Assembly: GCA_002686955.1 (NCBI GenBank)
Contig: NYZA01000108.1
Coordinates: 1,312-65,311 of the forward strand
Source of the DNA: Gemmatimonadota bacterium
GTDB taxonomy: Bacteria; GCA-2686955
Direction: 5' to 3'
DNA: 64,000 bases
Of the stretch, positions 6,339-49,515 are shown piece after piece (within the stretch, counting starts at the first letter, position 1; every line of letters starts with the position of its first letter). The position numbers were made by a program, and so were the translations under genes. The notes beneath the pieces were generated by a model that worked only from the letters and a program-made list of their open reading frames with translations, ran no database searches and was not told the DNA's origin.

Positions 6339-6854
6339 ATGCAGGTCGACATGGAGTCGGCACAACCATCGCCCTTCGACGTACTGTCCGTCGTCGTGTC
6401 GATGCAGACGGAACCGTGGGTCGAATCGGCGCGTGGACATACCGAACGAGGGGGTGATTGGGTCGAGATCGAGGATGCCACTGCCTGGGGAATGGTGCCA
6501 AAGCTACGCATCTACTGGCGATCACGGGGACAACGCTGGTTCCACTTGAACCGCTCCGTAGCGACACCCCTCTTCATTGACGGAGAGGCTCATCGATACG
6601 AGCTCGGCATGGCGGGCGTACCGGAATGGACAGGGTCCGACAGCATCCGGGCCATCGGCGTGGATCTCGTCCCAGGGAAGGCCTGGCGAAGTGCGGATCC
6701 CCCCCTCGAGTGGATCGTAGCCGAGTTCTCGACATTCGAGCTTGGGCACCTGCGATCCGAGACGATGCTCTACAATCATCCCGATGTCGCTCCCACGGAT
6801 TCTGTTGCTCAACCCGCCTGGAAAGGCGCACTACACGCGCGACTGTCTCCATAG
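6339..6854 (+). CDS. hypothetical protein (Trp-rich, no recognised domain)
   Basis: Downstream part of ORF 5757-6854, beginning after the MITE remnant. Codon third positions are moderately GC-rich. Overlaps the radical SAM start region. No motif recognised. Confidence 0.35.
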   Translation: MQVDMESAQPSPFDVLSVVVSMQTEPWVESARGHTERGGDWVEIEDATAWGMVPKLRIYWRSRGQRWFHLNRSVATPLFIDGEAHRYELGMAGVPEWTGSDSIRAIGVDLVPGKAWRSADPPLEWIVAEFSTFELGHLRSETMLYNHPDVAPTDSVAQPAWKGALHARLSP

Positions 6855-8136
6855 CAATATCACAAAATCGGACTACTACTGGCACCAGCTCGATCTCTTG
6901 CTGCAGAGCGGATGGCTCGCGCAGGTCGGCGAAACTGAGGTTCTCGACGCGGTGGTCGAGCGACTGCCCTTCCAGGCCGCCTTGCGTCGTGCCTGCGCCA
7001 AGAGCCACGACTATGTGCTGATGATGACCGGAGAGCGGTCGATGGACGAGGATCGCCGTTTCGCCGCCGCCCTCGCCGAGCATCACCCAGATGTGAAGAT
7101 CTTCGCCTCGGGCGATGTGGTCTTCTTCCGTGGCGAGAAGCCCTTTTCGGAGTATCGCAACCTGCGCGGTGTGATTACCGACTTCACGGCCGATGGACTC
7201 AAGCGATACATCGCGGGCGAGCGAGGGCCGCTCCCGGGGCTTCGGTACTTGGCGGACGACGGCACGCTCCAAACCGATCGGCCGGCCGAAAAAACAACCA
7301 GCTATCCACGACCCCGCCACGAGTCCTTTCCCCTCGAGCGGTACCGTTTGCCTTTCGGAAGGTCGATCCCCTTTGGCAGTGTGCTCACAACCTTCGGTTG
7401 CCCTTATCCCTGTCGCTACTGCAACGCGCGCATGGTGCGCTTCCGCACGCGGCCTGTCCTCGACGTCATCGAGGAAATGTCTTGGCTGTGGCAACATGGG
7501 CTGCGAAAGCTGTACATCCGCGATCCGACCTTCGGCGTCCGTCCCGATGAAGCCCTGGCAATATGCCGTGAGATGGTGCGCGAGGGGCTGGTTTTCGAAT
7601 GGAACGCATTCACGAGGCCGGATATTCTGGACGATCAGCTCCTCGAAGCGATGGCCTCGAGTGGCTGCGTGTTGGTGCAGCTCGGCCTCGAGACACCTGA
7701 TCTCGATGCGCTGCGGGCTCAGGGGAAACGCTTCGTCGAGTCGTCTATCCGCGATACTATCGAGCGATGCCATGCGCTTGGGATCGAGGTGTGCGGGCAT
7801 TTCATGATCGGTTTTCCGGGAGAAGATCGGAGCACCTGGGAGCACATCGCCGACTACGCCATCGATGTAGGTTGCGACTACTTCGCGCTAAACGTCGCCG
7901 AAGTGCGACTGGGCACCAGCCTCACCAATGAGGATCCAGTCACCACGCTGGAACGTCGGCGCTACTTTTTCGATGAGAGTGAGCTCAGAGCGCAAATCCC
8001 GCGCCTCAATCGTCGTTTCTACGCTCGTCCTGGCTTCGTCTTGAAGCAGTTGCGAGGCGTGAGCGACACTCGTCAACTCTGGAGTCTCGCCCGAAAAGGG
8101 ATCGGTGTACTCGCGCCGTGGGCGACCAGCCCTTGA
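6784..8136 (+). CDS. B12-binding-domain radical SAM protein (class B)
   Basis: N-terminal Rossmann-like cobalamin-binding region (ILLLNPPGK...). Radical SAM cluster motif GCPYPCRYC. ATG at 6784 preferred to TTG at 6742. Confidence 0.85.
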   Translation: MSLPRILLLNPPGKAHYTRDCLHSNITKSDYYWHQLDLLLQSGWLAQVGETEVLDAVVERLPFQAALRRACAKSHDYVLMMTGERSMDEDRRFAAALAEHHPDVKIFASGDVVFFRGEKPFSEYRNLRGVITDFTADGLKRYIAGERGPLPGLRYLADDGTLQTDRPAEKTTSYPRPRHESFPLERYRLPFGRSIPFGSVLTTFGCPYPCRYCNARMVRFRTRPVLDVIEEMSWLWQHGLRKLYIRDPTFGVRPDEALAICREMVREGLVFEWNAFTRPDILDDQLLEAMASSGCVLVQLGLETPDLDALRAQGKRFVESSIRDTIERCHALGIEVCGHFMIGFPGEDRSTWEHIADYAIDVGCDYFALNVAEVRLGTSLTNEDPVTTLERRRYFFDESELRAQIPRLNRRFYARPGFVLKQLRGVSDTRQLWSLARKGIGVLAPWATSP

Positions 8137-9309: not shown

Positions 9310-10353
9310 TCAGTCACCCGCGAGATCGCATTCCTCGCGCTGCTCGCTGAATAGGCGGGGAAAGCGAAGCGCGATCCGCTCCGCCACGGGCACCCAGCGA
9401 CGCACGGTACGACCCCTCAGCGCCATCGCGCCCAGAACCCAGGGCAAGCGGGGGCGCGCGCAAGGGCATGTTTTGCAGAGAGACTCTTCGTTCCAGCGCC
9501 TCTCGGCATGCAGAGATCGCAGCCGTTCCATCTCCGATGAATTCCAGAGCGACTCGAGGCTCGAATCGGCGATATTTCCGAGGGGCTCCCCATTCTCGGC
9601 GATGTGGTAGCAGGGATAGACCTCTCCGTTGTGGCGGACGACCATCGGGCCGCGCCACAGCAGAAAGCAGGCGTTTTCGCGCAGGTGCCCGTCGAGCTCG
9701 TAGAGCCGGTGTTCTTCGATGCCGATGTCCTCCTCCTTGATGCGGACGGTGTCCACACCGTCCACGCCGGACCACTCATCGATGAATGCCTGCTGCTCGT
9801 GCAGGTTGCGGCGCATGCGGATGAACTGCACGACAATGGTCATCGGGGAACGGCGGCGTCGCTTCTCCGCCGCGAGCGCTCGGACCTGCTCCACGACACG
9901 TGAGAAGTCCCCCCCCGCGCGGTAGTAGTCGTAGGTCTCTTCGCTGACGCCATCGATGCCGACGATCACGTGCCGGCACCCGGAATCGAGGAGCTTGCGG
10001 CGCCGGGCCTCGTCGAGCAGAGTGCCGTTGGTCGAGAGGATCGTATCCACATCGAGCTCGCGGCACCTCTCGAGGAGATCGAAAATGCGGGGATCGAGGA
10101 GCGGCTCGCCGAGGCCGTAGGTGTAGAGGTGATCGCCACCGATGCGCGCGTGCTCCTCGATCAAGGGGAAGAGAAGCTCGTCGGGCAGATCTTCGGCGCG
10201 ATATGCCACGCCTGTTCGCGGGCACATCGGGCATAGCAGGTTGCAGCGAACGGTGGTTTCCACCATCAGCCCGCTCGGCCCGGGAAGATCGATCGACCTT
10301 CGTCGCAAGTAGGCGGACATCAAGCGCAAACGATCTTTGGGGAGGCGTGGCAT
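9310..10353 (-). CDS. radical SAM / SPASM-domain protein
   Basis: CNLLCPMCPR (CxxxCxxC) near the N-terminus. Cys-rich C-terminal region (YPCYH..., CKTCPCARP) typical of SPASM/twitch auxiliary clusters. Confidence 0.8.
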   Translation of the reverse strand: MPRLPKDRLRLMSAYLRRRSIDLPGPSGLMVETTVRCNLLCPMCPRTGVAYRAEDLPDELLFPLIEEHARIGGDHLYTYGLGEPLLDPRIFDLLERCRELDVDTILSTNGTLLDEARRRKLLDSGCRHVIVGIDGVSEETYDYYRAGGDFSRVVEQVRALAAEKRRRRSPMTIVVQFIRMRRNLHEQQAFIDEWSGVDGVDTVRIKEEDIGIEEHRLYELDGHLRENACFLLWRGPMVVRHNGEVYPCYHIAENGEPLGNIADSSLESLWNSSEMERLRSLHAERRWNEESLCKTCPCARPRLPWVLGAMALRGRTVRRWVPVAERIALRFPRLFSEQREECDLAGD

Positions 10354-10382
10354 GGGGTTGTCTTCTCGTCAGTCTCGGGAGA

Positions 10383-11765
10383 TCAGCGAACGACGGCCTC
10401 CAGCGAGTCGAGCTCGGCGAGGCGATTCCGGTAATAGTCGAGGTCGGGATCGAGGGCGACCATGCGTTCACAAAACGAACGCTCGTCTTTCAGCCGGCCC
10501 GCCCTACGGTAGAATCCCGCGAGCATGCGAGATGCCAGATTGTGAGGTTCAACATCCGCACCATGCCTTTCCATCGAAGCGATCGCTTCGTCGAGGCGGC
10601 CGGCGTCCGCGAGCATCAGCGCATCTACCAGCCATAGGAGTGAACGGTTCTTCGTTCTTGCTGACTTCGACCAGCGATGAAGCTCTGCTTGGGCAACCGA
10701 GGAGTCGAAATCCGGCGCGCGAGGATTCGATTGGGGGGGAGGGGGGGCGAGCACGATCGGCGACGAGAGTTGGCGGCACGCCTCGAGCACGGCGCCATAG
10801 ACAACTTCGGCCACTACCGAATACCCCTCGCCGCTGGGGTGGCTGCCATCGGGGGAGATCAGGCGGTCACGGCCCACTTTCTCTTTCGCCGCTGTGAATG
10901 CGGGCCGCACATTTGCCACCGGAAGCGAATGGCGCGCGGCGATCTCCTTCTGAACCGTCTCCAGGAGCTCAGGTCCACCGCGGCCTCTTTTCGGGGGCGA
11001 TCTCCCTTCAGGATAGGTGGCGATGACGAGCACGGCACCCTTCGTGCTGACCTGGCTTGCCATCGACGCCATATCGCTTCGAAGCTGATGGTACGCCGCC
11101 CGGCGTAAGGTCTCGGGCGCGCTGGAGCCGACCTCCCTGGGGCCCCTGAGCCCCCGGATCAGTCCTGCCTGACCGGGCCGGTAGGGCTTTGCGACGACAG
11201 GCTCAGGCCGTGGCTGTTTCTCCGGCGTCGATCGGGCCCCGGTCAGCCACGAATGAGGCGCCAGCCTCGAGAGCGTCCAATGCAAGAATCGGTAGACCCA
11301 TAGATGCCGGAGCCGGTTTCTCGTGGGATCGAGAAACGAGACGGCGGGCCACTTCGGTTCGCGGAACTTCCAGATGTTGTTCAAGCCCACGAGCACACAG
11401 ACGACATGCGGCCGGGTCTCATCCAAGAGGTCCGGAAGATCGGCGAGAATCTCCCCCGAGGACCGTCCGGGGAGCCCTGCGTTACGAACCGATGCCTCTA
11501 GTGCAGGGTTCCGCTCTCGAAGCAGGCCTTCGAGCTGCCGGGGCCACGAATAGAGACTGGGCATCGTGCCCATTCCGTAGGTGTATGAGTCTCCGACGCA
11601 GAGGACACGCAAGTCTTCATCCCCGGTATCGGTGGCGTTTCGGACGCGTTGCAGCAGCACCCAGCCACCGGCACGTGGAACCGCTTCGAAGGCCGCCGCG
11701 ACGAGCAGCAGGCTCAGCGTCGCGTATAGTGCTTTGCGCGGAGTGGACAGGTGCAAGGTAGGCAT
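10383..11765 (-). CDS. membrane-anchored SGNH/GDSL hydrolase with C-terminal TPR region (paralog 3)
   Basis: TM helix ALYATLSLLLVAAAF. Block I is LCVGDSYTYG, block III is VLVGLNNIW, block V is DGSHPSGEGY. TPR-like helices lie at the C-terminus. ATG at 11765 chosen because it avoids overlap with the upstream gene. Confidence 0.75.
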   Translation of the reverse strand: MPTLHLSTPRKALYATLSLLLVAAAFEAVPRAGGWVLLQRVRNATDTGDEDLRVLCVGDSYTYGMGTMPSLYSWPRQLEGLLRERNPALEASVRNAGLPGRSSGEILADLPDLLDETRPHVVCVLVGLNNIWKFREPKWPAVSFLDPTRNRLRHLWVYRFLHWTLSRLAPHSWLTGARSTPEKQPRPEPVVAKPYRPGQAGLIRGLRGPREVGSSAPETLRRAAYHQLRSDMASMASQVSTKGAVLVIATYPEGRSPPKRGRGGPELLETVQKEIAARHSLPVANVRPAFTAAKEKVGRDRLISPDGSHPSGEGYSVVAEVVYGAVLEACRQLSSPIVLAPPPPQSNPRAPDFDSSVAQAELHRWSKSARTKNRSLLWLVDALMLADAGRLDEAIASMERHGADVEPHNLASRMLAGFYRRAGRLKDERSFCERMVALDPDLDYYRNRLAELDSLEAVVR

Positions 11766-11775
11766 CTCTCGCCGA

Positions 11776-13518
11776 TCAGGGCTGGGCAACCGTGACGGTG
11801 GATCGAGCTTGGACCCCTTCAATCTCTGAAAAGGAGCCGTCCGGCCACCGTACTTTCACGAGGCTGAGTCCGGTGTACTCTCCGAGACCGAAGTGAATCA
11901 CGTTCTCATTGCACGAATACAAGCTCGATCCTGATCTCCTCTCTCGAACTTGAGTCTCGTCGCCGGCGACCAACCACACACGAGCACCGATGGCGCTCGT
12001 ATTCGGCGGATTGCCGACGAGACGCAGACGGATCCATCCGCCCGCGCCTTCGGTCCGATTCACGAGCACCGAAGGGAAGGAACCGTCGTCGTTTCCGATC
12101 ACGATGTCGAGTTTGCCATCGTCGTCGAGATCGCCGATCGCAAGACCCTGGCTGCGCTGCAGCGCGGCGAATCCGGGACCGGCGGTCTCAGTAGATTCGA
12201 CAAAACACCCCCCGCCGACGTTTTCCATGAGGATGTTCCGCACGGGATCGAAGCCGGCGACATCTCCGTTCGCCACGGCCAAGTCCAAATCGCCATCGTT
12301 GTCGAAATCGGCGAAGGCTACACCCATTCCGATGACATTCGTGAATCGCTCGATGCCCGATTCCCGACTCTTCCTTCGGAGAACTACTCCGTTGACGTTT
12401 TCCATCAAGAAGTCCGAGTAGTAGTTCGTCGCGTACAGATCGATGTCGCGATCGTTGTCGTAGTCGCCGAGAGCGACACCCATCGCTCCCGTCCGTCGCG
12501 ATCTTCGAATCATTTTTTCGAGCACTTGTCCGCTTCGATCGTGGAAGACCCCGTCTCGATAGACATAGAAATTGTCGGGTCTTCCATCGTTCGTAACGAA
12601 TAGATCCGAGTAGCCATCGTCGTTGAGGTCGCAGAACGCGGCGCCCCAGCCCTCACCATCGGAAAGCCCCTCGACTCCCATCGCGCCGGCCATGTCGACG
12701 TACCGACCCGAACTGTCATGGATAAACATGTGGTTGGCACACCCACGAACCCCTAGCAATGGCGGATGCCGTCTCGGCTTCTCCGTCTTCCCATTGGTCT
12801 CGAACGCGGTCAGGTTCGCTACGAAATTGCTTACGTACATGTCCAGGTATCCGTCGCGGTTCACATCCGCCAACGCGATCCCGCGACCGAACTTCGTGCT
12901 CGCGACGTCGACTTGCCGGCCGATCTCTTCGAATGTCCCGTCCCCCCGGTTGCGGTACAAGAGGTTGGGCCGGTCGACCGCGGTGGTCACGTAGAGATCG
13001 TCGAGACCATCGCCATCGAGATCTCCCCAGGCGGCGGCCTGCGCGGTGGTCCTTATCGCGGATCCAAATGCCTGTTCCGCCATCGGAGTGAATACGAGAT
13101 CGCCCTCGTTCCGGTAGAGGCCGTCGGGTCGCGCGTGTGAGTCCGGCTCGCGCCGGATCCAGCGGGTCGCATAGGTGGCCAGGAAAATGTCCTGATCACC
13201 ATCTCGATCGAAATCGTTGATCGCGACACCTCGGATGTGGCGCGTCGTGATGTTGGAATCGTGCGGATCGAGAAGCTCGAAATGGATGCCTTGGTCCATT
13301 CCGAAGCCCTCAGACGTTCCGGCGCTGGTCGTGCTTGGCTGGAAAAAGGGGGATTCGGGACCTGCCTCATCCGTCTCCACCGAATCGGGCGTAGAGGAGC
13401 ACGCAGAGAGCGCGAACAGGCTTAGGGTTCGCGCAAGAATAACTTCCCATTTTGGCGCCCAGATGTGCCGCGGATCTGGTCGATCGGCGATCTTCGAAAC
13501 CGGAGGAATAGCAGGCAT
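11776..13518 (-). CDS. FG-GAP/VCBS-repeat protein with C-terminal ASPIC/UnbV domain (CRTAC1-like)
   Basis: Repeated DxDGDGxxD FG-GAP calcium loops (DFDRDGDQDIF, DLDGDGLDDLYV, DVNRDGYLDMYV, DLNDDGYSDLFV, DFDNDGDLDLAV, DLDDDGKLDIV). C-terminal WIRLRLVG...IGARVW...VKVRWPDG. Lipobox LFALSAC. The only in-frame ATG upstream of the lipobox (13518) lies inside the MITE. Confidence 0.85.
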   Translation of the reverse strand: MPAIPPVSKIADRPDPRHIWAPKWEVILARTLSLFALSACSSTPDSVETDEAGPESPFFQPSTTSAGTSEGFGMDQGIHFELLDPHDSNITTRHIRGVAINDFDRDGDQDIFLATYATRWIRREPDSHARPDGLYRNEGDLVFTPMAEQAFGSAIRTTAQAAAWGDLDGDGLDDLYVTTAVDRPNLLYRNRGDGTFEEIGRQVDVASTKFGRGIALADVNRDGYLDMYVSNFVANLTAFETNGKTEKPRRHPPLLGVRGCANHMFIHDSSGRYVDMAGAMGVEGLSDGEGWGAAFCDLNDDGYSDLFVTNDGRPDNFYVYRDGVFHDRSGQVLEKMIRRSRRTGAMGVALGDYDNDRDIDLYATNYYSDFLMENVNGVVLRRKSRESGIERFTNVIGMGVAFADFDNDGDLDLAVANGDVAGFDPVRNILMENVGGGCFVESTETAGPGFAALQRSQGLAIGDLDDDGKLDIVIGNDDGSFPSVLVNRTEGAGGWIRLRLVGNPPNTSAIGARVWLVAGDETQVRERRSGSSLYSCNENVIHFGLGEYTGLSLVKVRWPDGSFSEIEGVQARSTVTVAQP

Positions 13519-13608
13519 ATTTCGAGGATTTCGGAGATCGCCGATTGGCCGGAGACGTGGTGCAGATGGGATGCAAGAATGGGAAGTTATTCTTGCGTGA
13601 ACCCTTAG
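13421..13608. mobile_element. complete 188-bp MITE with about 28-bp terminal inverted repeats matching the IS end at 62168
   Basis: Left end is CTTAGGGTTCGCGCAAGAATAACTTCCC. The right end reverse-complements to CTAAGGGTTCACGCAAGAATAACTTCCC. The IS end at 62168 is CTAAGGGTCCACGCAAGAATAACTTC. Confidence 0.85.
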
Positions 13609-13634
13609 AACCGGTGCGAATCGTGTCCGTCCCA

Positions 13635-16034
13635 CTACTCCTCCACCAACATTCGCAGCATTTCCATTGCTTTGTTGGTGGAGTGGATGCGGCTTAGATA
13701 CGCCAATCGCCCCTCCTTGTCGATGATGATCTGTAGCGGAAAGGGAGCCGATGCACCCTCCGGCACCACCCGGCTACGAAAATGCTCCGTCACTGTTTCA
13801 TCGGGTCCGGGAGGAAGGGTGAAGCAGAAAGGATCGGGTCCTTTTTCGAGGTCCAGCAACACCGGGACCCGCAACCCGGTGTCGGCGACGAATTTTTTCA
13901 CGATTCGCTGGCTCTGGCGCCAGTTCATCGAGAAGGCGGCCAGCTCGTCGTGGGAGAACTCGTTTCGCACGGCACTCATCAGGTCTGGAACCTCCAGACC
14001 GCAGATCGGTCACCACGAGGCAAAGGCGGCCAGAAGAATGGGGCGGCCCTTGGCGACCTCTTCGTCGAGATCGAAACAGTCCAGGCGCTCTGGGCAGCTC
14101 CCGTCCGGGCAGATGTTGATCATCGGGAGGCGGAAGTTCGGGACCGGATCCCCGACTTGGTACACGGTGGATGGGATCAAGAGGATCCGGGGAGTAGCGT
14201 TCTCGGGGTCGTTCGAATGTAGAATGACCGAAGAATTGGCTCCGGTGCGAACTACGTTCTCTTCCGCTACTTTGAGCGTCAGCAACGCGGATTCACCGGG
14301 CGGCACACACCAGGAACCAGCCGTGTCTTTTTTCCTATCGAAGGGCTGCTCCAAGTCGAGCTGGTGACGTCCTCCGTTCGATACGCGGATCGTGATTGTC
14401 TCTTCATCGTGCGCCTCCCGCGGTAAGCGGTGGCCACGATCGTGAACAACTAGGCGGGGCGCGCCAGCGCCGCGTCGGATCTCTCCAGTGAGCAACACGT
14501 CGAGTTCCGCCGCCACGAAACGTCCATTCTCGAGATGGACGAAATTGGCCGCGGTGAGTCCATTCTCATGAAGACCGCCCCCGGCGGCCAGATAGGAGGG
14601 ATGGAAACCGTCGATTGCGTCCAAGAGCCTGAGACGGCCGCGAACCGAGGCATCGTACAGTCGAATATTGTCCCAATCGGCCACGAGCAGATACCCGCCC
14701 TCGAACGAGAGCCCCATCGCCGACCCCGGGGTGTGCACATTGGCGATCAACTGGGGCGCGGCCGGGGACCCGAGGTCGAAGAGGTCGATGCCAAGAGCGC
14801 CGTTGGCTACCGCCACCATCTCGTCATCTAGAATCGCGATGCCCCTCGGGGTTCCCGTTGTGTGGGCGGAACTCAGCACAATCGGCATGCCCGGTTCCTT
14901 CAGCTCGAGCACGTGCATCGTCCCCCCGTACAGGCTCACTTCGTGTGCGTCCGTGGCGCCCGCGACGAGAAGATGGGTCCCGTCGTAGGCGACGGTGCTT
15001 GCTCCGCGCATCGCCGGCAGATCGAGATCGCCATCGAGCCTGAGCCGCCCATTTTCCAGCAGACGCACACTCGCAATCCCGTTCGGATGGTGGATGGCGA
15101 AGATCCGATCGCCAACGCGCACCATGTCTCCGAAGCCGCGCCCACCGGTCATGGACGAGATATGCTCCGGGGGCGCGAGGGGCCTGGAGTCAAGGGGCGG
15201 CAAGCGCCAACTCGAAAGCCCACCGCGGGCCTTGTTGTCCGCGCCTCGAGACGATGAAACGGCGATCCCTCTCTCGGGAAACACCAACAGATGCTCGCTT
15301 ACCGTGATCCTGCTCCGTTCCAGGCGTGTCTCGACCAGGTTCGCGCGCAGTCGCTCCGCCGCGCTGTCGATCGGCTCATCGATGATCGGCAGCTCGGCGA
15401 CCGGAATCAGTCCGATCGCGTCGGTCATGCAGGCGACGATCACATCGCCATACCTTCGGGCGGAACGCGGGTGGATCATGTGTCCCAATCGCCCCCGTCC
15501 GGCCGACCGGTGATTGACGCTTATGCCACGCTCGACCTTGATGTGGTGCCCATCGACGCGCGCCACGCAACGTCCCGCCTCGAGGATTTCACCCTCTCCG
15601 CACCGGGCGCCCGAGCTGATGTTGACCGCCGCATGTGCTTCGATGCGACTCGAGCCCAACGCACCGTGGATGCTGAAGAGATGGTCTCCCTCAGCCGCTG
15701 GCGCGTTCAGAACGATCGAGCCGATCAATGCGTCTCCCTCTGAGCGGAGCATGAGCGCCCGGTCGACCTCTTCCGCGTCCATTTCCAGGTCGACGCTCAA
15801 CTCCGATCGTCGATCATCCGCCTGCGGTACTCGGGCGGTGAGCGTCAACTCCGCCCCCGGCAGCGCCGTTTCGGGGGCAATGCCGAGCCGAGCCGGCTGC
15901 GAGAGCGGGGCCAGGGCTTCGGCCGACGTGCTCTCCCACGGGGAAGCGCGCTCCGTCGTCGATTCCGAGCAAGATAGCAGACCGAGGCACAGAATGACGG
16001 GCTGCACTCCGCTGGATGTCGATGGGGGCCGCAT
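13635..16034 (-). CDS. predicted secreted selenoprotein: lipoprotein signal + beta-propeller-like (LVIVD-type) repeats + C-terminal TlpA/ResA-like thioredoxin fold with a UxxC redox motif
   Basis: ORFs 14010-16034 and 13635-13979 share one frame, separated only by TGA (14012-14010) and 10 sense codons. The joined reading is ...PILLAAFASW-U-PICGLEVPDLMSAV.... The TGA sits where TlpA-like proteins carry the first Cys of WCxxC. The downstream part continues the Trx fold (PLQIIIDKEGRLAY). Signal/lipobox CLGLLSCS. Confidence 0.75.
13982..14000 (-). promoter_or_regulatory. bacterial SECIS-like hairpin downstream of the in-frame UGA
   Basis: mRNA reads UGA CCGAUCUGC GGUCUGG-AGGUU-CCAGACC. The stem is 7 perfect bp and starts 9 nt after UGA. 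The G-containing apical loop begins 17 nt after UGA. Confidence 0.65.
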
Positions 16035-19697: not shown

Positions 19698-19759
19698 GAA
19701 GGAAACCCCTATGGTGACGGACTATGATACATGAGCCGGAGAGGGGGAAGGGTCCTTGA

Positions 19760-20440
19760 TCACTCTCCGTATATTCTCCTCATATCTGGTCGTTCGGTGC
19801 AGAAATAATGTACCCATATGTAGCAATGCTGAAAAGCCGCGACGATCAGAGCGGACCGGGAGTCGAGTGCGATGGCGATGATCCAGAGGAAGAGAAACGC
19901 AAAAGTGTACATGGCATTCGGAACATAACGGAAGACGCCCCGGCGGACCTTTCCCAATCGGCGGATCTCGGGATCAAAATGGTCTTTTCCCATCGCTCTC
20001 GATACGCCGAAATAGCGGAACACGGAATAGAGCGTATAGATCAATAGCGGGAGCATTGGAAGTGCCAGCGAAACACCGATGCTCGGAGGCAGGCTGAGAG
20101 AACCGCGATCGGTCCAGGCGAGGCAGAAGAGCGTGATCGGGCGAGCGGAGAGGAGTATCAGAAAGTCAGCGGCGTAAACGGGAAAGGCATATCTGCCGAG
20201 AGGTTGAGAGACACCTTTATAGAGCAACTCGATTCGCCAGACCGCCCAGATGTAGATTTGGTGCACCGCGGGAATCGCAAGGGAGAGCGCGAACCAACCG
20301 CCGGCGCCGATTCCGAGCAATCGAGTGTCGTTGGTCCACGGATGGCCGAAACCCCAGGCCAGTGCCAGCAGCAGGACAAGGAGCATCCAATGCGTCGGTT
20401 GTCCTTCGAGGAATTCCCGCCGGCGCGAAGTTGTGTTCAT
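19760..20440 (-). CDS. integral-membrane methyltransferase family protein (ICMT/PEMT-like)
   Basis: Multi-TM protein with a C-terminal GVFRYVPNAMYTFAFLFLW motif resembling the ICMT/PEMT signature. ATGA overlap with the lpxK stop at 20437-20440. Confidence 0.55.
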   Translation of the reverse strand: MNTTSRRREFLEGQPTHWMLLVLLLALAWGFGHPWTNDTRLLGIGAGGWFALSLAIPAVHQIYIWAVWRIELLYKGVSQPLGRYAFPVYAADFLILLSARPITLFCLAWTDRGSLSLPPSIGVSLALPMLPLLIYTLYSVFRYFGVSRAMGKDHFDPEIRRLGKVRRGVFRYVPNAMYTFAFLFLWIIAIALDSRSALIVAAFQHCYIWVHYFCTERPDMRRIYGE

Positions 20441-21537
20441 TGTTTCGCCATGGCGCAAACCCGCTCGATCGCGGTCCACAGGATCGCACTGGAGTGTTCG
20501 TCCCAAGTCAGTTTCCGCTCGAAGACAAGACATCGGAGCTTCACGGCGGTGGTGTCGATCAGTGGCGCGAGCTTGACCGCGTCTTTCGTTGTCGCGACAA
20601 CGCCGCGGGCGCCACGTTGCTGAGCGCGACGCAGGAACGAGTCGAGCTCGCCACGATCGTAGAAGTGGTGATCGCCCTTCCACAGGCGGGCAACCGGATT
20701 TGCGCCGAGGGAACGGATATCTTGCTCGAAGCTCTCCGGTCGGGCGATTGCCGCGACCAGAGCGACCGGCTCGTTCCGCAAAGTGTCGATGTCGATCGCT
20801 TCGCCACCGCGAAGAGGGCGCAGGCATCCGGGCGAGAATGCGAAGGCGACGTCGGCGTCCGGATCGAATGGGCGACCCGCGGCCCACGGATTAGGGGTGG
20901 GCGGAGAGACGGATCGCTTCTCTGGCTCGGCGAAGAGACGCAGATCGGCGCGTGCCGCCGCCGCCCAGGGCTCCCGCATCCGTCCGGCGGGCAGAGGAGC
21001 CAGGTCGCCGCGGGACTCGGTATCGGCGTTGGGCATCACCACGAGATCGAGATCGCGGGCCAGGCGCCGGTGCTGGAAGCCGTCGTCGAGCACCACGATC
21101 CGGGCGCCGGTGAGATCGCGCGCGGTCATGGCGGCGGCCACTCGGTCGCTCCCCACGACCACCGCGGCGGCTCCAAGCAGGGCCTGTGCACTGGCGATCG
21201 CCTCGTCTCCCGCCTCGGCCACCGAAGAGAGAATCCGGTCTCCCTTCGATACGATTCGAACCTTGCGGTCCCCGGCGCCGCCGTAACCTCGTGAGACGAG
21301 AGCGACGTTGTGGCCCCGCGTCGCGATCCGGCGGGTCAGGTCGAGCGCGATCGGCGTCTTGCCCGATCCGCCCGCCATCAGCCCTCCCACGGAGACCACC
21401 GGGACGCCGACTGACCATTCGCGAAGGGCGCCGATGGCGTGGCCGATAGATCGAACGCGCCACGCGAGCCGCCACGGGAGCGCCCCGGCACGAAGCACGC
21501 AAGTCCCCGCGCGACTGCCGCGCAGCGATTCCTGCAT
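20437..21537 (-). CDS. lpxK: tetraacyldisaccharide 4'-kinase
   Basis: P-loop VVSVGGLMAGGSGKTP and overall LpxK-like sequence. Adjacent to lpxB. Start at ATG 21537 (MQESL) avoids overlapping lpxB. Confidence 0.85.
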   Translation of the reverse strand: MQESLRGSRAGTCVLRAGALPWRLAWRVRSIGHAIGALREWSVGVPVVSVGGLMAGGSGKTPIALDLTRRIATRGHNVALVSRGYGGAGDRKVRIVSKGDRILSSVAEAGDEAIASAQALLGAAAVVVGSDRVAAAMTARDLTGARIVVLDDGFQHRRLARDLDLVVMPNADTESRGDLAPLPAGRMREPWAAAARADLRLFAEPEKRSVSPPTPNPWAAGRPFDPDADVAFAFSPGCLRPLRGGEAIDIDTLRNEPVALVAAIARPESFEQDIRSLGANPVARLWKGDHHFYDRGELDSFLRRAQQRGARGVVATTKDAVKLAPLIDTTAVKLRCLVFERKLTWDEHSSAILWTAIERVCAMAKQ

Positions 21538-21556
21538 CCCGGCAAGGTCGCTACGC

Positions 21557-22717
21557 CTATTCACGCCGCACTGCCCGATCGAGCTGCTCGATGATGAGCT
21601 CTGCGGTTCGGCGGGCGGCGCCCGGGCGGCCGAGGCGTTCACGCACCCGCGAGAGCTCGCCGCGCATGCGCTCCCTTTCCGGCCGAGAATCGAGCAGTTT
21701 GCCCAGCTCGGCGGCGATCCTGGTGGGGGTCGCAGCGCGCTGCAGCAGCTCGGGGACGATCGTCTTCCCGGCGATGATATTCGGAAGTCCGAGGTGATCG
21801 AGGCGAACGACCGCCTTGCCGACCGCCCAGGTCAGTGGGGAGACGCGGTACACCAAGACATGGGGGATGCCCGCGAGAGCCGCCTGAAGGGTCGCCGTGC
21901 CCGAAGCGATGATGGCGGCGTCGGCGTGGGCGAAAACGGCGTCGGAGCGGCCTTCCAGAACAATGACCGGCGCGCGGCAGCGGGCCACTTCGGTGGCGAC
22001 TCGGACCGAATCGACTCCGGGTGCGCGCGGCAAGACGAAGCGCAGATCGGGACGCGTGCGGATCAGCTCTTCGGCTGCCATGAGCATCGGCCGGAGCAGC
22101 CGCCGGATCTCCTGGTCACGGCTTCCCGGCAGGAGTCCGACGATTCGTTCGTCCCTTTCGGCATCGCAGAGGCGCGCCAATTCGGGGCGGGGCAGCGCCT
22201 CTGCCGGCTCGTCGAGCAGGGGATGACCCATCCAACGGGCGTCCACGCCGGCATCGCGCCAGAGCTTCTCCTCGAAGTTGAAAATCACCGCCAGGCGGCC
22301 GATCGAGCCACGGACCTTTCCGATCCGCCCCTTTCCCCACGCCCACACTTTTGGGGCGATGTAGTGCAGAGTGGGGACTCCGGCGCGGGCGGCCTTTCGA
22401 GCCAAGCGCAGATTGAAGCCCGGGTAGTCGACCGTGACACACAGATCGATGCCGCCTCCCTCTAGCTCGGCGGCGAGTTTTCGCATCGCCCGGCGCAGGG
22501 CCGGCAGATGCCGTGCCACCTCGACCAGCCCGACGACGGCGAGCTCTTCGGCAGGGAAGATCGCCTCTACCCCGGCGGCGACCATTCGCCGCCCCGCCAC
22601 ACCGACAAAGCGGATATCGGGACGGATTTCGCGGGCGGCGGCCACGACCCGCGCGGCGTGCTCGTCACCGGAAACCTCCCCGGCGCTGATCAGAACGGTC
22701 GGAGCAGTGGAGCCCAT
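21557..22717 (-). CDS. lpxB: lipid-A-disaccharide synthase
   Basis: N-terminal ISAGEVSGDEHAARVV motif. GT19-like sequence throughout, ending in ...ASGTATLQAAL.... Confidence 0.9.
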   Translation of the reverse strand: MGSTAPTVLISAGEVSGDEHAARVVAAAREIRPDIRFVGVAGRRMVAAGVEAIFPAEELAVVGLVEVARHLPALRRAMRKLAAELEGGGIDLCVTVDYPGFNLRLARKAARAGVPTLHYIAPKVWAWGKGRIGKVRGSIGRLAVIFNFEEKLWRDAGVDARWMGHPLLDEPAEALPRPELARLCDAERDERIVGLLPGSRDQEIRRLLRPMLMAAEELIRTRPDLRFVLPRAPGVDSVRVATEVARCRAPVIVLEGRSDAVFAHADAAIIASGTATLQAALAGIPHVLVYRVSPLTWAVGKAVVRLDHLGLPNIIAGKTIVPELLQRAATPTRIAAELGKLLDSRPERERMRGELSRVRERLGRPGAARRTAELIIEQLDRAVRRE

Positions 22718-22759: not shown

Positions 22760-23113
22760 ATGGCGTCGATGCTTCTTCTGCTCGTGGCGAACCCTGAGAG
22801 CGACGGCGCACGCTGTGAAGCGGGTTTGCTCCTGGCGCTGAACACAAGACGAACCGATATCCTGAACGAAGTGCGGGTGATGCTCTACGGGAGCGGGGTG
22901 CGGATCCTGGACGCGGAGATCGATGAGCAAGACCGATTCGGCGACCTGCTCCGACGGCTCGTGGATGAAGGAGTCGAAGTGGTCGCTTGCACCGGCAGTC
23001 TGCTGGAGCACGGAATGGGACGCGCGGCCCGAAGTGCGGGAATCGCGCCGGCGGGAGCGCAGGTATATCTGCCGGCCAGAATCTCCGAAGGGTTCTCGAT
23101 CGTGACCTTCTGA
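22760..23113 (+). CDS. DsrE/DsrF-like sulfur-relay family protein
   Basis: 117 aa. Pattern LLLLVANPESDG...VMLYGSGV...GVEVVACTGSL is typical of the DsrE-like fold. Confidence 0.5.
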   Translation: MASMLLLLVANPESDGARCEAGLLLALNTRRTDILNEVRVMLYGSGVRILDAEIDEQDRFGDLLRRLVDEGVEVVACTGSLLEHGMGRAARSAGIAPAGAQVYLPARISEGFSIVTF

Positions 23114-23719: not shown

Positions 23720-24304
23720 ATGCCACGAGCCATCGTTCTGATTTCACTCTTTCTCGTCGGCCTCTCGGTCGAAGTCGCCTTCCTGGTGCGCCAGGGTCGC
23801 GCCCTCCGGGGCGATCTGGACCGCGCACTCCAGATGCTGCACGCGACCCAAGAGGAGCTCGCGAAAGCCCGCGCCAACACCTCACTCTCAGGGATCGCCG
23901 CGGAGCCCTTCCAACTCATGACGACCGAAGGCGACTCGATCGAACTCGGCGCGGGCCCCTCATTCGTAGTCTTCTTCTCGACCACCTGCCCGGCGTGCAA
24001 CGAAGACGCACCGATCTGGGGTGACCTCTACCGCGACTACTCCGATGCCGGCGTCCGCTTCGTCGGTGTCTGCGTAAAGGCAGAGGACGAATCCGCGCAA
24101 GCCTTCGCCGACAGATGGGAAGTCGACTTCCCCGTCGCCTACACCGACGATCCCCGCGTATCTCTGGCCTACCGCGCCGACTACCTGCCCAGGCGAATCC
24201 TGATCGACGCCGACGGCCTCATCGCCTGGTCCGATCGGGCCGATGCCCCCCTCGGCGTCGAAGGCGAGGCGGAAGTCCGCGAAGCGCTGGAAGGGTTGTT
24301 GTAG
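23720..24304 (+). CDS. TlpA/ResA-like thiol:disulfide oxidoreductase (membrane-anchored thioredoxin fold)
   Basis: N-terminal TM helix. Redox motif FFSTTCPACNE. Trx-fold continuation ...PRRILIDADGLIAW. Confidence 0.85.
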   Translation: MPRAIVLISLFLVGLSVEVAFLVRQGRALRGDLDRALQMLHATQEELAKARANTSLSGIAAEPFQLMTTEGDSIELGAGPSFVVFFSTTCPACNEDAPIWGDLYRDYSDAGVRFVGVCVKAEDESAQAFADRWEVDFPVAYTDDPRVSLAYRADYLPRRILIDADGLIAWSDRADAPLGVEGEAEVREALEGLL

Positions 24305-42904: not shown

Positions 42905-43654
42905 TCACCGCATCCCCCGCTCCGCCGAAACCCGATCGTAGGCGTCCTGTAGATCCTGGAACTTCCGGTTGGCCAGCTCGACGAACTCTTCGGGCATGCC
43001 TTTGGCGATGATGTTGTCGGGGTGGTACTCTTTGGCGAGCCGGCGATACTTTTTTCGGATGTCGTCGTCGGAGTCGTTGGGTGAGCAGCCGAGGATGCGG
43101 TAGTAGGGAGAGACGTCGGGGATGACGCGGGCGCGCATGCGCAGATAGTCGTCGCGGCTGAACCCGAAAATGTCGGCGGCGCTTTTGATCATGCGCTCTT
43201 CGTTAGGGTGCAGCTCGGCGTCGGCGATCGAGACGCGCAGAAGCACGTCGATCAGCATCTCTTTGACCTGGGGATCGCGGGCGAATGTCGTCGCGAATTG
43301 TGTCGCGAACTCCTCGAAGGCGTGATCCGATTCCTTCGCCTTGCGAAAGATGTCGATCGCGAAGGCGCGGGTTGGATCGTCGAGCCGGAGCTGATCCCGC
43401 ATGAAGGCGTCGATGGCGTCGATTTCGTCGCGGGTGACCTGTCCGTCGGCCTGGGCGAGCTTGGCGAGCATCGAAAAGGTGCCGACGAAGAAGAGGGTTT
43501 GGCGCTCTTCGCCCCGGGTGAGGCGGGGGGCGCGCTCTCTGGCGCGGCCGGGGAAGACGGCATCGGCGGCCATCGCTCCGAGAACGGCGCCAAGGGGGCC
43601 GCCGGTGATGGCGAATCCGATGGCTCCGCCGACGATGGTCTTGAACCAGCCCAT
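42905..43654 (-). CDS. djlA: DjlA-like co-chaperone (TM + TerB-like domain + C-terminal J domain)
   Basis: N-terminal Gly-rich TM (MGWFKTIVGGAIGFAITGGPLGAVLGAMAA). C-terminal J domain YYRILGCSPNDSDDDIRKKYRRLAKEYHPD. Confidence 0.75.
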   Translation of the reverse strand: MGWFKTIVGGAIGFAITGGPLGAVLGAMAADAVFPGRARERAPRLTRGEERQTLFFVGTFSMLAKLAQADGQVTRDEIDAIDAFMRDQLRLDDPTRAFAIDIFRKAKESDHAFEEFATQFATTFARDPQVKEMLIDVLLRVSIADAELHPNEERMIKSAADIFGFSRDDYLRMRARVIPDVSPYYRILGCSPNDSDDDIRKKYRRLAKEYHPDNIIAKGMPEEFVELANRKFQDLQDAYDRVSAERGMR

Positions 43655-43741
43655 GGGGTCTCCTTCGTGAGCCACGAACATCAAGGGTGGTGCGTGGCGG
43701 TCGATCGGGGATAAGGGAGCCCATGTTCGCCCTGGAAGGCC

Positions 43742-44758: not shown

Positions 44759-44913
44759 CGAGACCGTGCAGGTTCTGGTCCTGCCGGTGCTTCGTGCCGG
44801 TTCGACGCGGAGGTGTAGTGGTGCTACGTCGCACAAGGCGAAACGGTGGGAAGTGCCGGCAGGGCAGGGAGATGTGCGGTCGCAGTAGGAATCTCGTGAG
44901 ATATCCGGGTTAG
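44729..44913. mobile_element. ~185-bp MITE (second family) between convergent genes
   Basis: Terminal inverted repeats are TTAGCCCGGATATCTCACGAGATTCC (44729-44754) and GGAATCTCGTGAGATATCCGGGTTAG (44888-44913), with 25 of 26 positions complementary. Confidence 0.8.
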
Positions 44914-45737
44914 TCGGTGGAACGAGACCCTTTCGCGCGATCGGCCAGGGATCGCACGCCATCGGCGAGCTCTCCGCGGCGGCGGATCGCTACCATTTCG
45001 GCCACGACGGCCAGCGCGATCTCTTCCGGCGTCTCGGCGCCGATGTCGAGGCCCATCGGGGCGTGAATGAGTGAGAAGCGCTCGGGCGCGACGCCCGCGC
45101 TGGCGAGGCGCATCTTGAACCGTTGCACCTTGTTGCCGCTCCCGATGAGTCCGAGATATCGGAATGCGCCCGGGAGCAGCTCGGTGAGCAGCTCTTCGTC
45201 GCCGCGGTGGGTGTGGGTGACGATCACGAGGTAGTCGTCGGAGCGGCGAGGGATCGAGAGGGCGGCGTCGACGAACTCCTCGACGCGAACCTCCATCGCG
45301 GCGGGGAAGCGCTCTTCGGTGGCGTAGTCGGGGCGGTCGTCGATGACCGTGACGCTGAAACCGGCGTCGGCGGCGTAGCGGGCGAGCGGCTGGGCGACGT
45401 GGCCCGCGCCGAAGAGGTAGAGACGGGGCGGACCGCCCATCGCTTCGATCATGACTTCCACACTGCCTCCACAACACATCGCCAAATCGGCGCCGAGAGA
45501 AAAGGTGCGGCGCAGAATCGCGCCCCTTTCCAGGAGCCGAGCGGCCTCGGCCCTCACCTCTTCTTCGAGACGTCCCCCGCCGATCGTGCCCTCGAGGGTG
45601 CCGTCGTCGAGAACGATCATTCTCGTGCCCGCGTGGCGGGGAGAGGAGCCCTTGGTCTCGACGATGGTCACGAGGGCGAAAGGTTCGCCGCGGTCGAGAA
45701 GCTCGGTGGCGCGGCGGAAGAGGTCGGCGGGGGTCAT
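44910..45737 (-). CDS. XdhC/CoxI-family molybdoenzyme maturation accessory protein
   Basis: N-terminal FALVTIVETKGSSPRHAGTRMIV...GTIGGG. Rossmann-like LYLFGAGHVAQPLA. The stop codon TAA (44910-44912) lies in the MITE terminal repeat. Confidence 0.8.
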   Translation of the reverse strand: MTPADLFRRATELLDRGEPFALVTIVETKGSSPRHAGTRMIVLDDGTLEGTIGGGRLEEEVRAEAARLLERGAILRRTFSLGADLAMCCGGSVEVMIEAMGGPPRLYLFGAGHVAQPLARYAADAGFSVTVIDDRPDYATEERFPAAMEVRVEEFVDAALSIPRRSDDYLVIVTHTHRGDEELLTELLPGAFRYLGLIGSGNKVQRFKMRLASAGVAPERFSLIHAPMGLDIGAETPEEIALAVVAEMVAIRRRGELADGVRSLADRAKGSRSTD

Positions 45738-48518: not shown

Positions 48519-49106
48519 TCAACTCTTGATGGTAATGAAGCACCCCATGGCTCGCGAGCGCGGCCGGGCAATCGGTTTTCCCTTCAAGTGGGCCTCGAGC
48601 GCGTCGACGAGATAGCTTTTGCGAGCGTGGGTCTTCTGCACATCGTAAGTGATGAGATCATCGATCGCGCCGCGGTAGACGATCTTCCACGTCCGGGGAT
48701 CGACGATCGCGGCTTCAGAAGTGATCCGCAGGCCAAGCCGTTTCACGATCTCTTGGCTCTCGTCCACGAGCACCGTAAAAGACTCGGCTTTGTACCCCGC
48801 CAGCTCCTTGGTGATCGATTCCGGCGAATCTTGTGGGCTCGCATCTACCAAGAAAAAGGGAATCCCCCGTTCCGAGTAACGCTTTTCAAGCTTCGCGATC
48901 ACAGGGTAGTACTGGCGCATGATGGGGCACTGATTGCCATGCGCGATGAAGACCAACGCCCCGGCCGCGGAGTGGTCGCGCGCCGCGAATCTGTCGCCCT
49001 TGTGCGTTGTCCCCACCAGCTCTCCCAGGCGCTTGCCTTCCACTCCGGTCCCGGGCGAGCCCTGGCAAGATGCCAAGAGCACACATAGTAAGAATAGTCG
49101 AACCAT
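48519..49106 (-). CDS. redoxin (AhpC/TSA-thioredoxin fold) lipoprotein
   Basis: Lipobox LLASCQG. LVFIAHGNQCPIMRQY single-Cys redoxin-like motif. Immediately upstream of 46371-48500 on the same strand. Confidence 0.65.
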   Translation of the reverse strand: MVRLFLLCVLLASCQGSPGTGVEGKRLGELVGTTHKGDRFAARDHSAAGALVFIAHGNQCPIMRQYYPVIAKLEKRYSERGIPFFLVDASPQDSPESITKELAGYKAESFTVLVDESQEIVKRLGLRITSEAAIVDPRTWKIVYRGAIDDLITYDVQKTHARKSYLVDALEAHLKGKPIARPRSRAMGCFITIKS

Positions 49107-49515
49107 GGGTTCCTTCCACAACTCGGGCAGATGCCAGCATAGCGAGTTATTCCTGCGCGGCAGCTTGGATGATAAGGTACTCGGCACGAGTTGGCTAGGG
49201 AGGGTCTCGGCTCGCCGCCGCGGGGATGGAGCATCGAGAGAACCGATCTCGAGGAACGATCGCCGCGCGTAAGAAGTCCTTGAAAAGACTGCCCTCCGAT
49301 TGGGCCGCCGGGACCCAATCCCCGGAAAAGGGACCGTGGGCCGGAAGTACCGGCTGCACAAGCGACACTGTTTCGGTGGCGTCGCGTGCGATCACGAGCG
49401 AATGAGGGCCGAGCGCGGGATCTCGCAACACCTCGCCACGCTCGCGAACCGATGTGCGCGGCTCTACAGAACGATTACCGGCACCGTTGCTCGTTGCGTG
49501 AACGTGGAGAACCGG

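Follow-up and report, generated by a model that had tools for sequence, protein, structure and literature searches.

A predicted selenocysteine-containing envelope lipoprotein of marine Gemmatimonadota, encoded across an in-frame UGA followed by a conserved SECIS-like hairpin

We analyzed a 64,000-nucleotide stretch of DNA from a Gemmatimonadota bacterium (assembly GCA_002686955.1, contig NYZA01000108.1, positions 1,312 to 65,311; the whole stretch is called the window hereafter), in which two neighboring open reading frames (ORFs) of the minus strand appear to be the two parts of one selenoprotein gene. The frame starts with an ATG at position 16034 and runs for 674 codons to ...GRPILLAAFASW, where it meets a TGA (14012-14010). 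Past the TGA, the unchanged frame reads PICGLEVPDLMSAVRNEF... for 124 more codons up to a TAG at 13637-13635, giving 800 codons in total, and the read-through product around the site is ...AAFASW-U-PICGLEVPDLMSAVR, in which U stands for selenocysteine (Sec). An earlier note on this DNA had proposed that the ORFs 16034-14010 and 13979-13635 share one frame with the TGA as their sole separator; the sequence confirms this, and all the coordinates and strings of that note are correct. The ORF of 114 residues is merely the stretch beyond the first in-frame ATG downstream of the TGA, and the public gene calls of the orthologs show the same two-way split. The G+C content of third codon positions is alike upstream and downstream of the TGA (0.75 and 0.73). 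Almost certainly, the two listed genes encode one cell-envelope lipoprotein of about 800 residues with a Sec active site, and we are highly confident that the gene is a genuine selenoprotein gene.

The first line of evidence comes from the relatives of the gene. We compared 18 distinct DNA loci, coming from metagenome-assembled genomes (MAGs) of Gemmatimonadota, from two MAGs labelled Proteobacteria/Deltaproteobacteria and from marine metagenomes; one protein fragment of the family is labelled Myxococcales. The codon is TGA in 18 of 18 loci and the frame beyond it is conserved to the end of the thioredoxin (Trx) fold, with protein identities going down to 29%. After the TGA, all of them have CC[N] [AGC]T[N] TG[CT], encoding Pro, Ile/Val/Leu and Cys, and then a hairpin. 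Between the TGA and the hairpin the codons vary synonymously (Pro uses four and Cys two), and therefore this stretch is translated.

Protein searches gave the same picture. A word-indexed search returned six homologs (99, 74, 58, 52, 52 and 30% identity), each ending in ...F[AS]SW, while an exhaustive search with a profile of residues 1-674 yielded about 27 clusters of the family (at 50% identity), of which 21 were judged from protein sequence. A profile built from 15 reconstructed Trx domains had 14 strong matches (E <= 1e-20), all of them downstream fragments of 94-127 residues. Among these roughly 27 clusters, 23 end in Trp at the exact position (...F-x-S-W) and two more end there with F or I. 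Another one (P0056) is without the C-terminal region and is uninformative for the Sec site, and the cluster P0036 reads straight through with a Ser (FFASW-S-PFS-GLELSDL). The family is also multi-copy. One Gemmatimonadota MAG (locus L003) carries copies at 10001-12436 and 19722-22022, 9.7 kb apart, and GCA_964520315.1 carries three copies on separate contigs (L005, L007 and L008). All copies whose Sec site is covered have the TGA and the same hairpin; L008 stops at a contig edge before the site.

The hairpin itself, GGTCTGGAGGTTCCAGACC (14000-13982), begins nine nucleotides past the TGA and forms, as the earlier note had described, a perfect 7-bp stem closed by the loop AGGUU. According to the published model of the bacterial Sec insertion sequence (SECIS), the loop has 3-9 nt with the pattern N1-G-[G|U]-N-N2 and a G in its first two positions, the stem has 4-16 bp, the distance from the UGA to the loop is 16-37 nt and the minimum free energy is at most -7.5 kcal/mol (PMC13188914, Fig. 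2). With its AGGUU loop, 7 bp, 16 nt and -11.9 kcal/mol, the window hairpin agrees with every point of this model, so that the match to bacterial SECIS geometry claimed before holds. Folded alone it gives z = -2.9, 1 of 200 shuffles being equally stable, but in a 66-nt context z is only -0.8; the fold by itself is thus not statistically remarkable, and it is the comparative data that make the hairpin significant. The only Rfam hit in the hairpin region, nhaA-II, lies on the opposite strand with E = 6.3 and was rejected as a chance match.

The strongest evidence for the hairpin is indeed evolutionary and points to selection acting at the RNA level. In a codon test on 10 orthologs and about 650 aligned codons, 60 columns held an invariant amino acid with degenerate codons. 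Results showed that 56 of these columns use two to five codons, and that the sole four with a single codon are consecutive, CTG-GAG-GTT-CCA (L-E-V-P), and fall within the hairpin. Over the 18 loci the hairpin is invariant or changes in ways that preserve base pairs, L010 losing the closing pair and no other. L007 has one G-U wobble; in L021 the second stem pair went from G-C to C-G, a compensatory change, and the first became G-U, at the cost of a Gly-to-Ala and an Asp-to-Glu replacement. By pair counting, 98.6% of the cells are paired, with one compensatory pair. When 241 million metagenome records were scanned for a UGA, nine nucleotides and this hairpin, there were nine matches, all belonging to this family. 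The unusual invariance of the SECIS reflects a double constraint, since the same nucleotides serve as an RNA element and encode the start of the helix that follows the active site.

On the contrary, the Ser-form homolog, with TGG-TCG-CCG-TTT-TCG at the site, is a continuous ORF in which the corresponding region reads GGG-CTG-GAA-CTC-TCC-GAC and the hairpin is gone. Therefore, conservation of the hairpin is tied to the UGA: it is kept in every TGA-bearing ortholog and decayed in the sole homolog bearing Ser. This Ser-form copy (L019, 1-1885; P0036, GCA_012966085.1, 54% GC) has Ser-x-x-Ser in place of U-x-x-C and an aberrant early C-terminus (...NDFFFLLKI and then two stops), and it is possibly redox-dead or degenerating.

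We then consider where the UGA falls in the protein. Pfam matches to AhpC-TSA and Redoxin cover residues 626-731 of the read-through product and straddle the TGA at codon 675, in line with the previous claim that the downstream piece continues a Trx fold. The isolated domain of 173 residues scores 37.9 bits for PF00578 (cut-off 26) and 35.4 bits for PF08534 (cut-off 26.6), and the full 799-residue protein still passes both cut-offs, with 31.7 and 31.5 bits. Against the PDB, phmmer aligned AKGRPILLAAFASW-[U]-PICGLEVPDL with ResA, and similarly with StoA and DsbE/CcmG, placing W-U-P-I-C on W-C-P-H-C. Therefore, as the earlier note had predicted, the UGA stands at the nucleophilic first Cys of WCxxC, and the active site of the domain reads W-U675-P-I-C678. 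An invariant P-F-P ahead of the beta-strand LQIIID is a putative cis-Pro loop, assigned from its place in the family since the hidden Markov model alignments end before it. The ResA, StoA and DsbE equivalogs of NCBIfam score 18-31 bits, below their cut-offs of 123-359, so the protein is not a member of those families, and the NCBIfam scan gave no match to a selenoprotein-specific model.

The rest of the protein is consistent with an exported product. The lipobox pattern [LVI][ASTVI][GAS]C matches PVILCLGLLSC, whose final Cys is Cys22, and the lipobox is conserved in the family (16 of 29 representatives match the pattern and most others are near-matches), which sustains the lipoprotein signal proposed earlier. 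The family alignments show seven more invariant Cys. Three of them lie in the propeller region, another three immediately before the Trx domain and one within it; together with the lipobox, they would be typical of an exported protein. In an AlphaFold2 model of residues 1-674 (mean predicted local distance difference test, pLDDT, of 70), a beta-propeller lies between two all-beta domains. With Foldseek, the propeller matches WD40-type propellers at E of about 1e-9, with template modelling scores of 0.57-0.73 on the target, and profile positions 375-463 match 7-27 times within large repeat proteins. Of the LVIVD-propeller proposed earlier, the propeller is therefore supported by the AlphaFold2 model and Foldseek, but the LVIVD assignment only weakly by Pfam: LVIVD (PF08309) scores 13.5 bits, under the cut-off of 20.2, and is faint in homologs, while distant homologs carry PF08309. 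The features of the locus are collected in Table 1.

Table 1. Features of the selenoprotein locus and related genes in the 64-kb window
Feature	Positions	Strand	Details and basis
Single selenoprotein gene (predicted)	13635..16034	-	799 residues and TAG stop; public calls give ORFs of 674 and 114 residues
In-frame TGA, predicted Sec, residue 675	14010..14012	-	TGA at the homologous codon in 18 distinct loci
SECIS hairpin (predicted), GGUCUGG-AGGUU-CCAGACC	13982..14000	-	also encodes G-L-E-V-P-D
Lipoprotein signal peptide, residues 1-22	15969..16034	-	lipobox L-L-S-C, Cys22 predicted lipidated; PROSITE-style lipobox pattern
N-terminal all-beta domain, residues ~44-140	15615..15905	-	AlphaFold2 model m807bbff4424e, strands 44-139, block pLDDT ~57-90, mostly 70-90
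Beta-propeller, LVIVD-like, residues ~150-530	14445..15587	-	Foldseek and AlphaFold2
Second all-beta (Ig-like) domain, residues ~545-621	14172..14402	-	AlphaFold2 secondary structure; putative fold class
C-terminal TlpA/ResA-like Trx-fold domain, residues ~625-799	13638..14162	-	PF00578 and PF08534, PDB alignments, family alignment
FG-GAP/UnbV_ASPIC repeat protein, downstream of the selenoprotein gene	11776..13635	-	Pfam; longest start, GTG 13635, overlaps the TAG stop
DsrE-like gene and ResA-like Redoxin gene	22760-23113 and 23720-24304	+	a short ORF apart; Redoxin has CPAC
Second Redoxin-family gene	48519-49361	-	likely lipoprotein start (MVRLFLLCVLLASC), single-Cys CPIM motif

Some observations weigh against decoding of this UGA as Sec. 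First, selA, selB, selD and the tRNA-Sec gene were found neither in the 64-kb window nor in any fetched locus: the tRNA-Sec search, covering the window and 20 loci, returned none, and Pfam annotation of about 40 window genes contained no SelA, SelB or SelD domains. Second, no Cys occurs at the Sec position among the roughly 27 clusters of the profile search, nor did a profile built from 15 reconstructed Trx domains find a Cys-form ortholog in 5.8 billion proteins; the matches next to its 14 strong ones, with E >= 1e-6, are generic Cys-containing TlpA-like proteins. The classical Sec/Cys pair thus seems absent within the family, Cys homologs being apparent only at the superfamily level. The Cys that the earlier note proposed to look for at this column is present in ResA, StoA and DsbE but was found in no ortholog, and the one replacement in the family is the Ser form. 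Third, the UGA-to-loop distance of 16 nt is at the lower edge of the published range. Moreover, because the hairpin is almost invariant, classical covariation is thin and the shuffle control for pairing is weak: 51 of 500 shuffles score at least as high as the real alignment. Finally, the hairpin loop holds a GGAGG 11 nt 5' of the in-frame AUG in 10 of the 18 loci, resembling a ribosome binding site, which is presumably why gene callers begin the second ORF there.

This last point leads to one of the two explanations that best survive beside Sec, in which the TGA is a true stop and the locus makes two proteins, a 674-residue propeller lipoprotein ending in Trp and a separately initiated protein of about 114 residues (ATG 13979), with the GGAGG of the loop serving as Shine-Dalgarno sequence for translational coupling or restart. 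The motif and its spacing, present in the window as well, would suit this explanation, and every public gene call makes the split. However, 8 of the 18 loci have no Met at the supposed restart and read DVLQ, DLIG, DLVS or DLAAS there, with the hairpin unchanged; without the Met, gene callers choose differing, non-homologous starts. Both arms of the stem are conserved and not the GGAGG alone, the P-x-C codons that evolve synonymously lie 5' of the supposed start, and the codon is never TAA or TAG, while the Ser form is one continuous ORF. A split would also cut the Trx fold at its catalytic residue, leaving two non-functional halves. We consider this explanation very improbable: the homologs do not stop and restart at this position, and this check, like the others named by the earlier note that could be run, came out in favor of Sec.

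An equally small chance is left to a read-through of the UGA that does not involve selenium, either by a near-cognate Trp or Cys tRNA or through a lineage-wide reassignment of the codon, the product then being W-W/C-P-I-C. The lack of Sec machinery in the window and in the fetched loci speaks for it, and SelB-independent UGA read-through is known to occur at low levels in bacteria. On the other hand, TGA ends 25 of 35 window genes, at positions that fit full-length Pfam domains; being the usual stop of the window, it indicates that the genetic code is standard and that recoding is site-specific. Moreover, a strictly conserved hairpin that agrees with the bacterial SECIS model and is lost when the codon is Ser would be unnecessary for a leaky read-through, and, were Cys or Trp the intended residue, TGC, TGT or TGG would be expected in some of the roughly 27 lineages, where none was seen. 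As for a pseudogene or an assembly error, that is, a nonsense change of a former Cys codon (TGC/TGT to TGA, a single substitution) in MAG and metagenome data that may contain errors, its probability is close to nil: the window organism has the identical downstream fragment in nine contigs that were assembled independently, most of them from Tara Oceans, and an upstream ORF of 99% identity likewise terminates at the same W, which together exclude a sequencing error, and the TGA recurs in 18 distinct loci of two phyla, including two to three paralogs per MAG, with the downstream region still under purifying selection.

Considering Sec as the preferred reading, a mechanism can be proposed. UGA-675 would be decoded as Sec during translation, the hairpin nine nucleotides downstream acting as a bacterial SECIS that brings SelB-GTP-Sec-tRNA(Sec) to the ribosome; the ribosome would then melt the hairpin, read G-L-E-V-P-D and proceed to the TAG. 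After export, the protein would carry a lipid at Cys22 and be anchored in the envelope, where the U-P-I-C pair might alternate between the selenol/thiol and the selenenylsulfide forms, as in a thiol-disulfide oxidoreductase (or a peroxidase), with the propeller presenting a substrate or partner and thereby giving specificity. Most likely, then, the protein is a selenol/thiol oxidoreductase that resembles TlpA and ResA in type and is anchored in the envelope.

The adjacent FG-GAP/ASPIC protein would be the likely partner in this scheme. An FG-GAP/UnbV_ASPIC homolog also lies directly downstream of the orthologs in L001 (4094-5746), L007 (3350-4804), L025 (795-1220) and L031 (1530-2414), and one is adjacent to the selenoprotein gene on the P0046 contig. 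In L021 (2156-3352) an FG-GAP domain is even fused in frame behind the Trx domain. The presence of this downstream neighbor in at least five lineages and the fusion suggest a functional pair, and we regard the FG-GAP/UnbV_ASPIC protein as a probable functional partner. Among the window genes annotated with Pfam, no CcdA/DsbD-type electron donor and no cytochrome-maturation genes were found nearby. A more speculative proposal, which we hold as possible and rather doubtful, is that an uncatalogued, Sec-obligate family of envelope lipoproteins forms with the FG-GAP/ASPIC protein a two-component system carrying out a redox reaction that Cys cannot do in oxic marine bacteria, and that the cassette spread horizontally. 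Under that proposal, the invariance of the 19-nt SECIS across phyla would be due to horizontal transfer of the whole cassette.

How does this protein compare with known systems? ResA, StoA, CcmG (DsbE) and TlpA are membrane-tethered and face the extracytoplasmic side, a location that the window protein would share. They also have in common the Trx fold, with W-C-x-x-C aligned to W-U-P-I-C. The window protein differs from them by its predicted Sec, by a lipoprotein anchor instead of a transmembrane helix, by the large N-terminal propeller and by scores far below the NCBIfam cut-offs. As for the RNA element, it resembles the SECIS of E. coli fdhF and fdnG and the Zhang-Gladyshev consensus for bacteria in being a hairpin of the coding sequence placed after the UGA, with a small apical G-G-U loop and a spacing within 16-37 nt. 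Unlike these, it has a short, perfect 7-bp stem without a bulged U, and it lies as close to the UGA as the range allows.

UxxC selenoproteins with a Trx fold are already known, as the earlier note stated, and form long-established predicted families: "Prx-like thiol:disulfide oxidoreductase" (PF00578), "Redoxin family protein" (PF08534), "Thiol-disulfide isomerase-like protein" and "TlpA disulfide reductase family" (cd02966), many members of which come from marine metagenomes (PMC13188914 Table 1, PMC1088965, PMC2398784). The window protein resembles these in its Pfam domains, in a UxxC motif with Sec for the N-terminal Cys, in a bacterial SECIS placed right after the UGA and in its marine metagenomic origin. 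It is unlike them in that the domain makes up the C-terminal 175 residues or so of a beta-propeller protein of about 800, and in that no Cys ortholog was found, whereas most such families have far more Cys than Sec members (PMC2398784). A prokaryotic catalogue of 2026 includes DsbA-like, DsbG-like, thiol:disulfide interchange, TlpA-family, TonB-receptor, outer-membrane barrel and substrate-binding selenoproteins (PMC13188914), and the part of the Global Ocean Sampling (GOS) data that we searched contains a Prx-like UxxC selenoprotein with an N-terminus resembling a lipoprotein signal. The rarity of extracytoplasmic Sec proteins in bacteria, invoked by the earlier note, was therefore overstated, and export alone is not novel. 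On Sec use in Gemmatimonadota, a literature search turned up no paper that affirms or denies it. In the searched part of the GOS sequence supplement, the motif W-U-P-[IVL]-C-G-L-E-V-P-D was not found. Compared by their descriptions, the catalogue entries did not include this family, which the propeller fusion of about 800 residues, the absence of Cys orthologs, the SECIS nearly invariant across phyla and the ASPIC linkage set apart; it would be a real selenoprotein family of a known sort.

Other genes of the window were also considered. The protein encoded at 23720-24304, used as a comparison by the earlier note, does contain FFSTTCPACNE and is Redoxin/ResA-like; neither this gene nor the second Redoxin-family gene has an in-frame TGA. 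A crude scan of the window for further in-frame TGA codons with coding signal on either side gave no other site with a redox-type motif. Near the selenoprotein gene there are radical SAM genes (one with SPASM) and GDSL-lipase genes at 6742-8136 (plus strand), 9310-10353 and 10383-11822 (both minus), and in L003 a radical SAM gene (12433-14184) stands directly behind the ortholog. The left end of the window (EF-hand, GDSL with TPR, class-V aminotransferase) is syntenic with L003. Farther away, between 26583 and 42208 on the minus strand, there is a run of large genes with Lamin-tail (LTD), CARDB, HHH_3, Endonuclease I, metallo-beta-lactamase and OB-fold/DUF5689 domains; they probably encode secreted proteins, and the run looks like an extracellular DNA-binding and nuclease cluster. 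A TerB-DnaJ fusion (42905-43684, minus) and an XdhC/CoxI-family accessory protein (44910-45737, minus) are unrelated to the selenoprotein, and a Transposase_29 family gene (62192-64000, minus; E = 3e-190) extends beyond the window on the right.

In conclusion, the finding leaves the standard bacterial mechanism of Sec insertion unchanged and bears mainly on annotation and on the biology of the family. In every public gene call examined for the window organism and for about 30 related lineages, a truncated "hypothetical protein" and an orphan ORF of about 114 residues stand in place of this gene. Once the Sec codon is recognized, the redox enzyme is complete again, and annotation pipelines would have reason to adopt a new model for the family. 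It also adds a large, multi-domain, presumably exported selenoprotein, with two to three paralogs per genome, to marine Gemmatimonadota and Myxococcota-like bacteria. Within this family Sec appears to be obligatory and not an occasional substitute for Cys, and the linkage to the FG-GAP/ASPIC gene, together with the fusion, gives a concrete lead to its substrate or partner.

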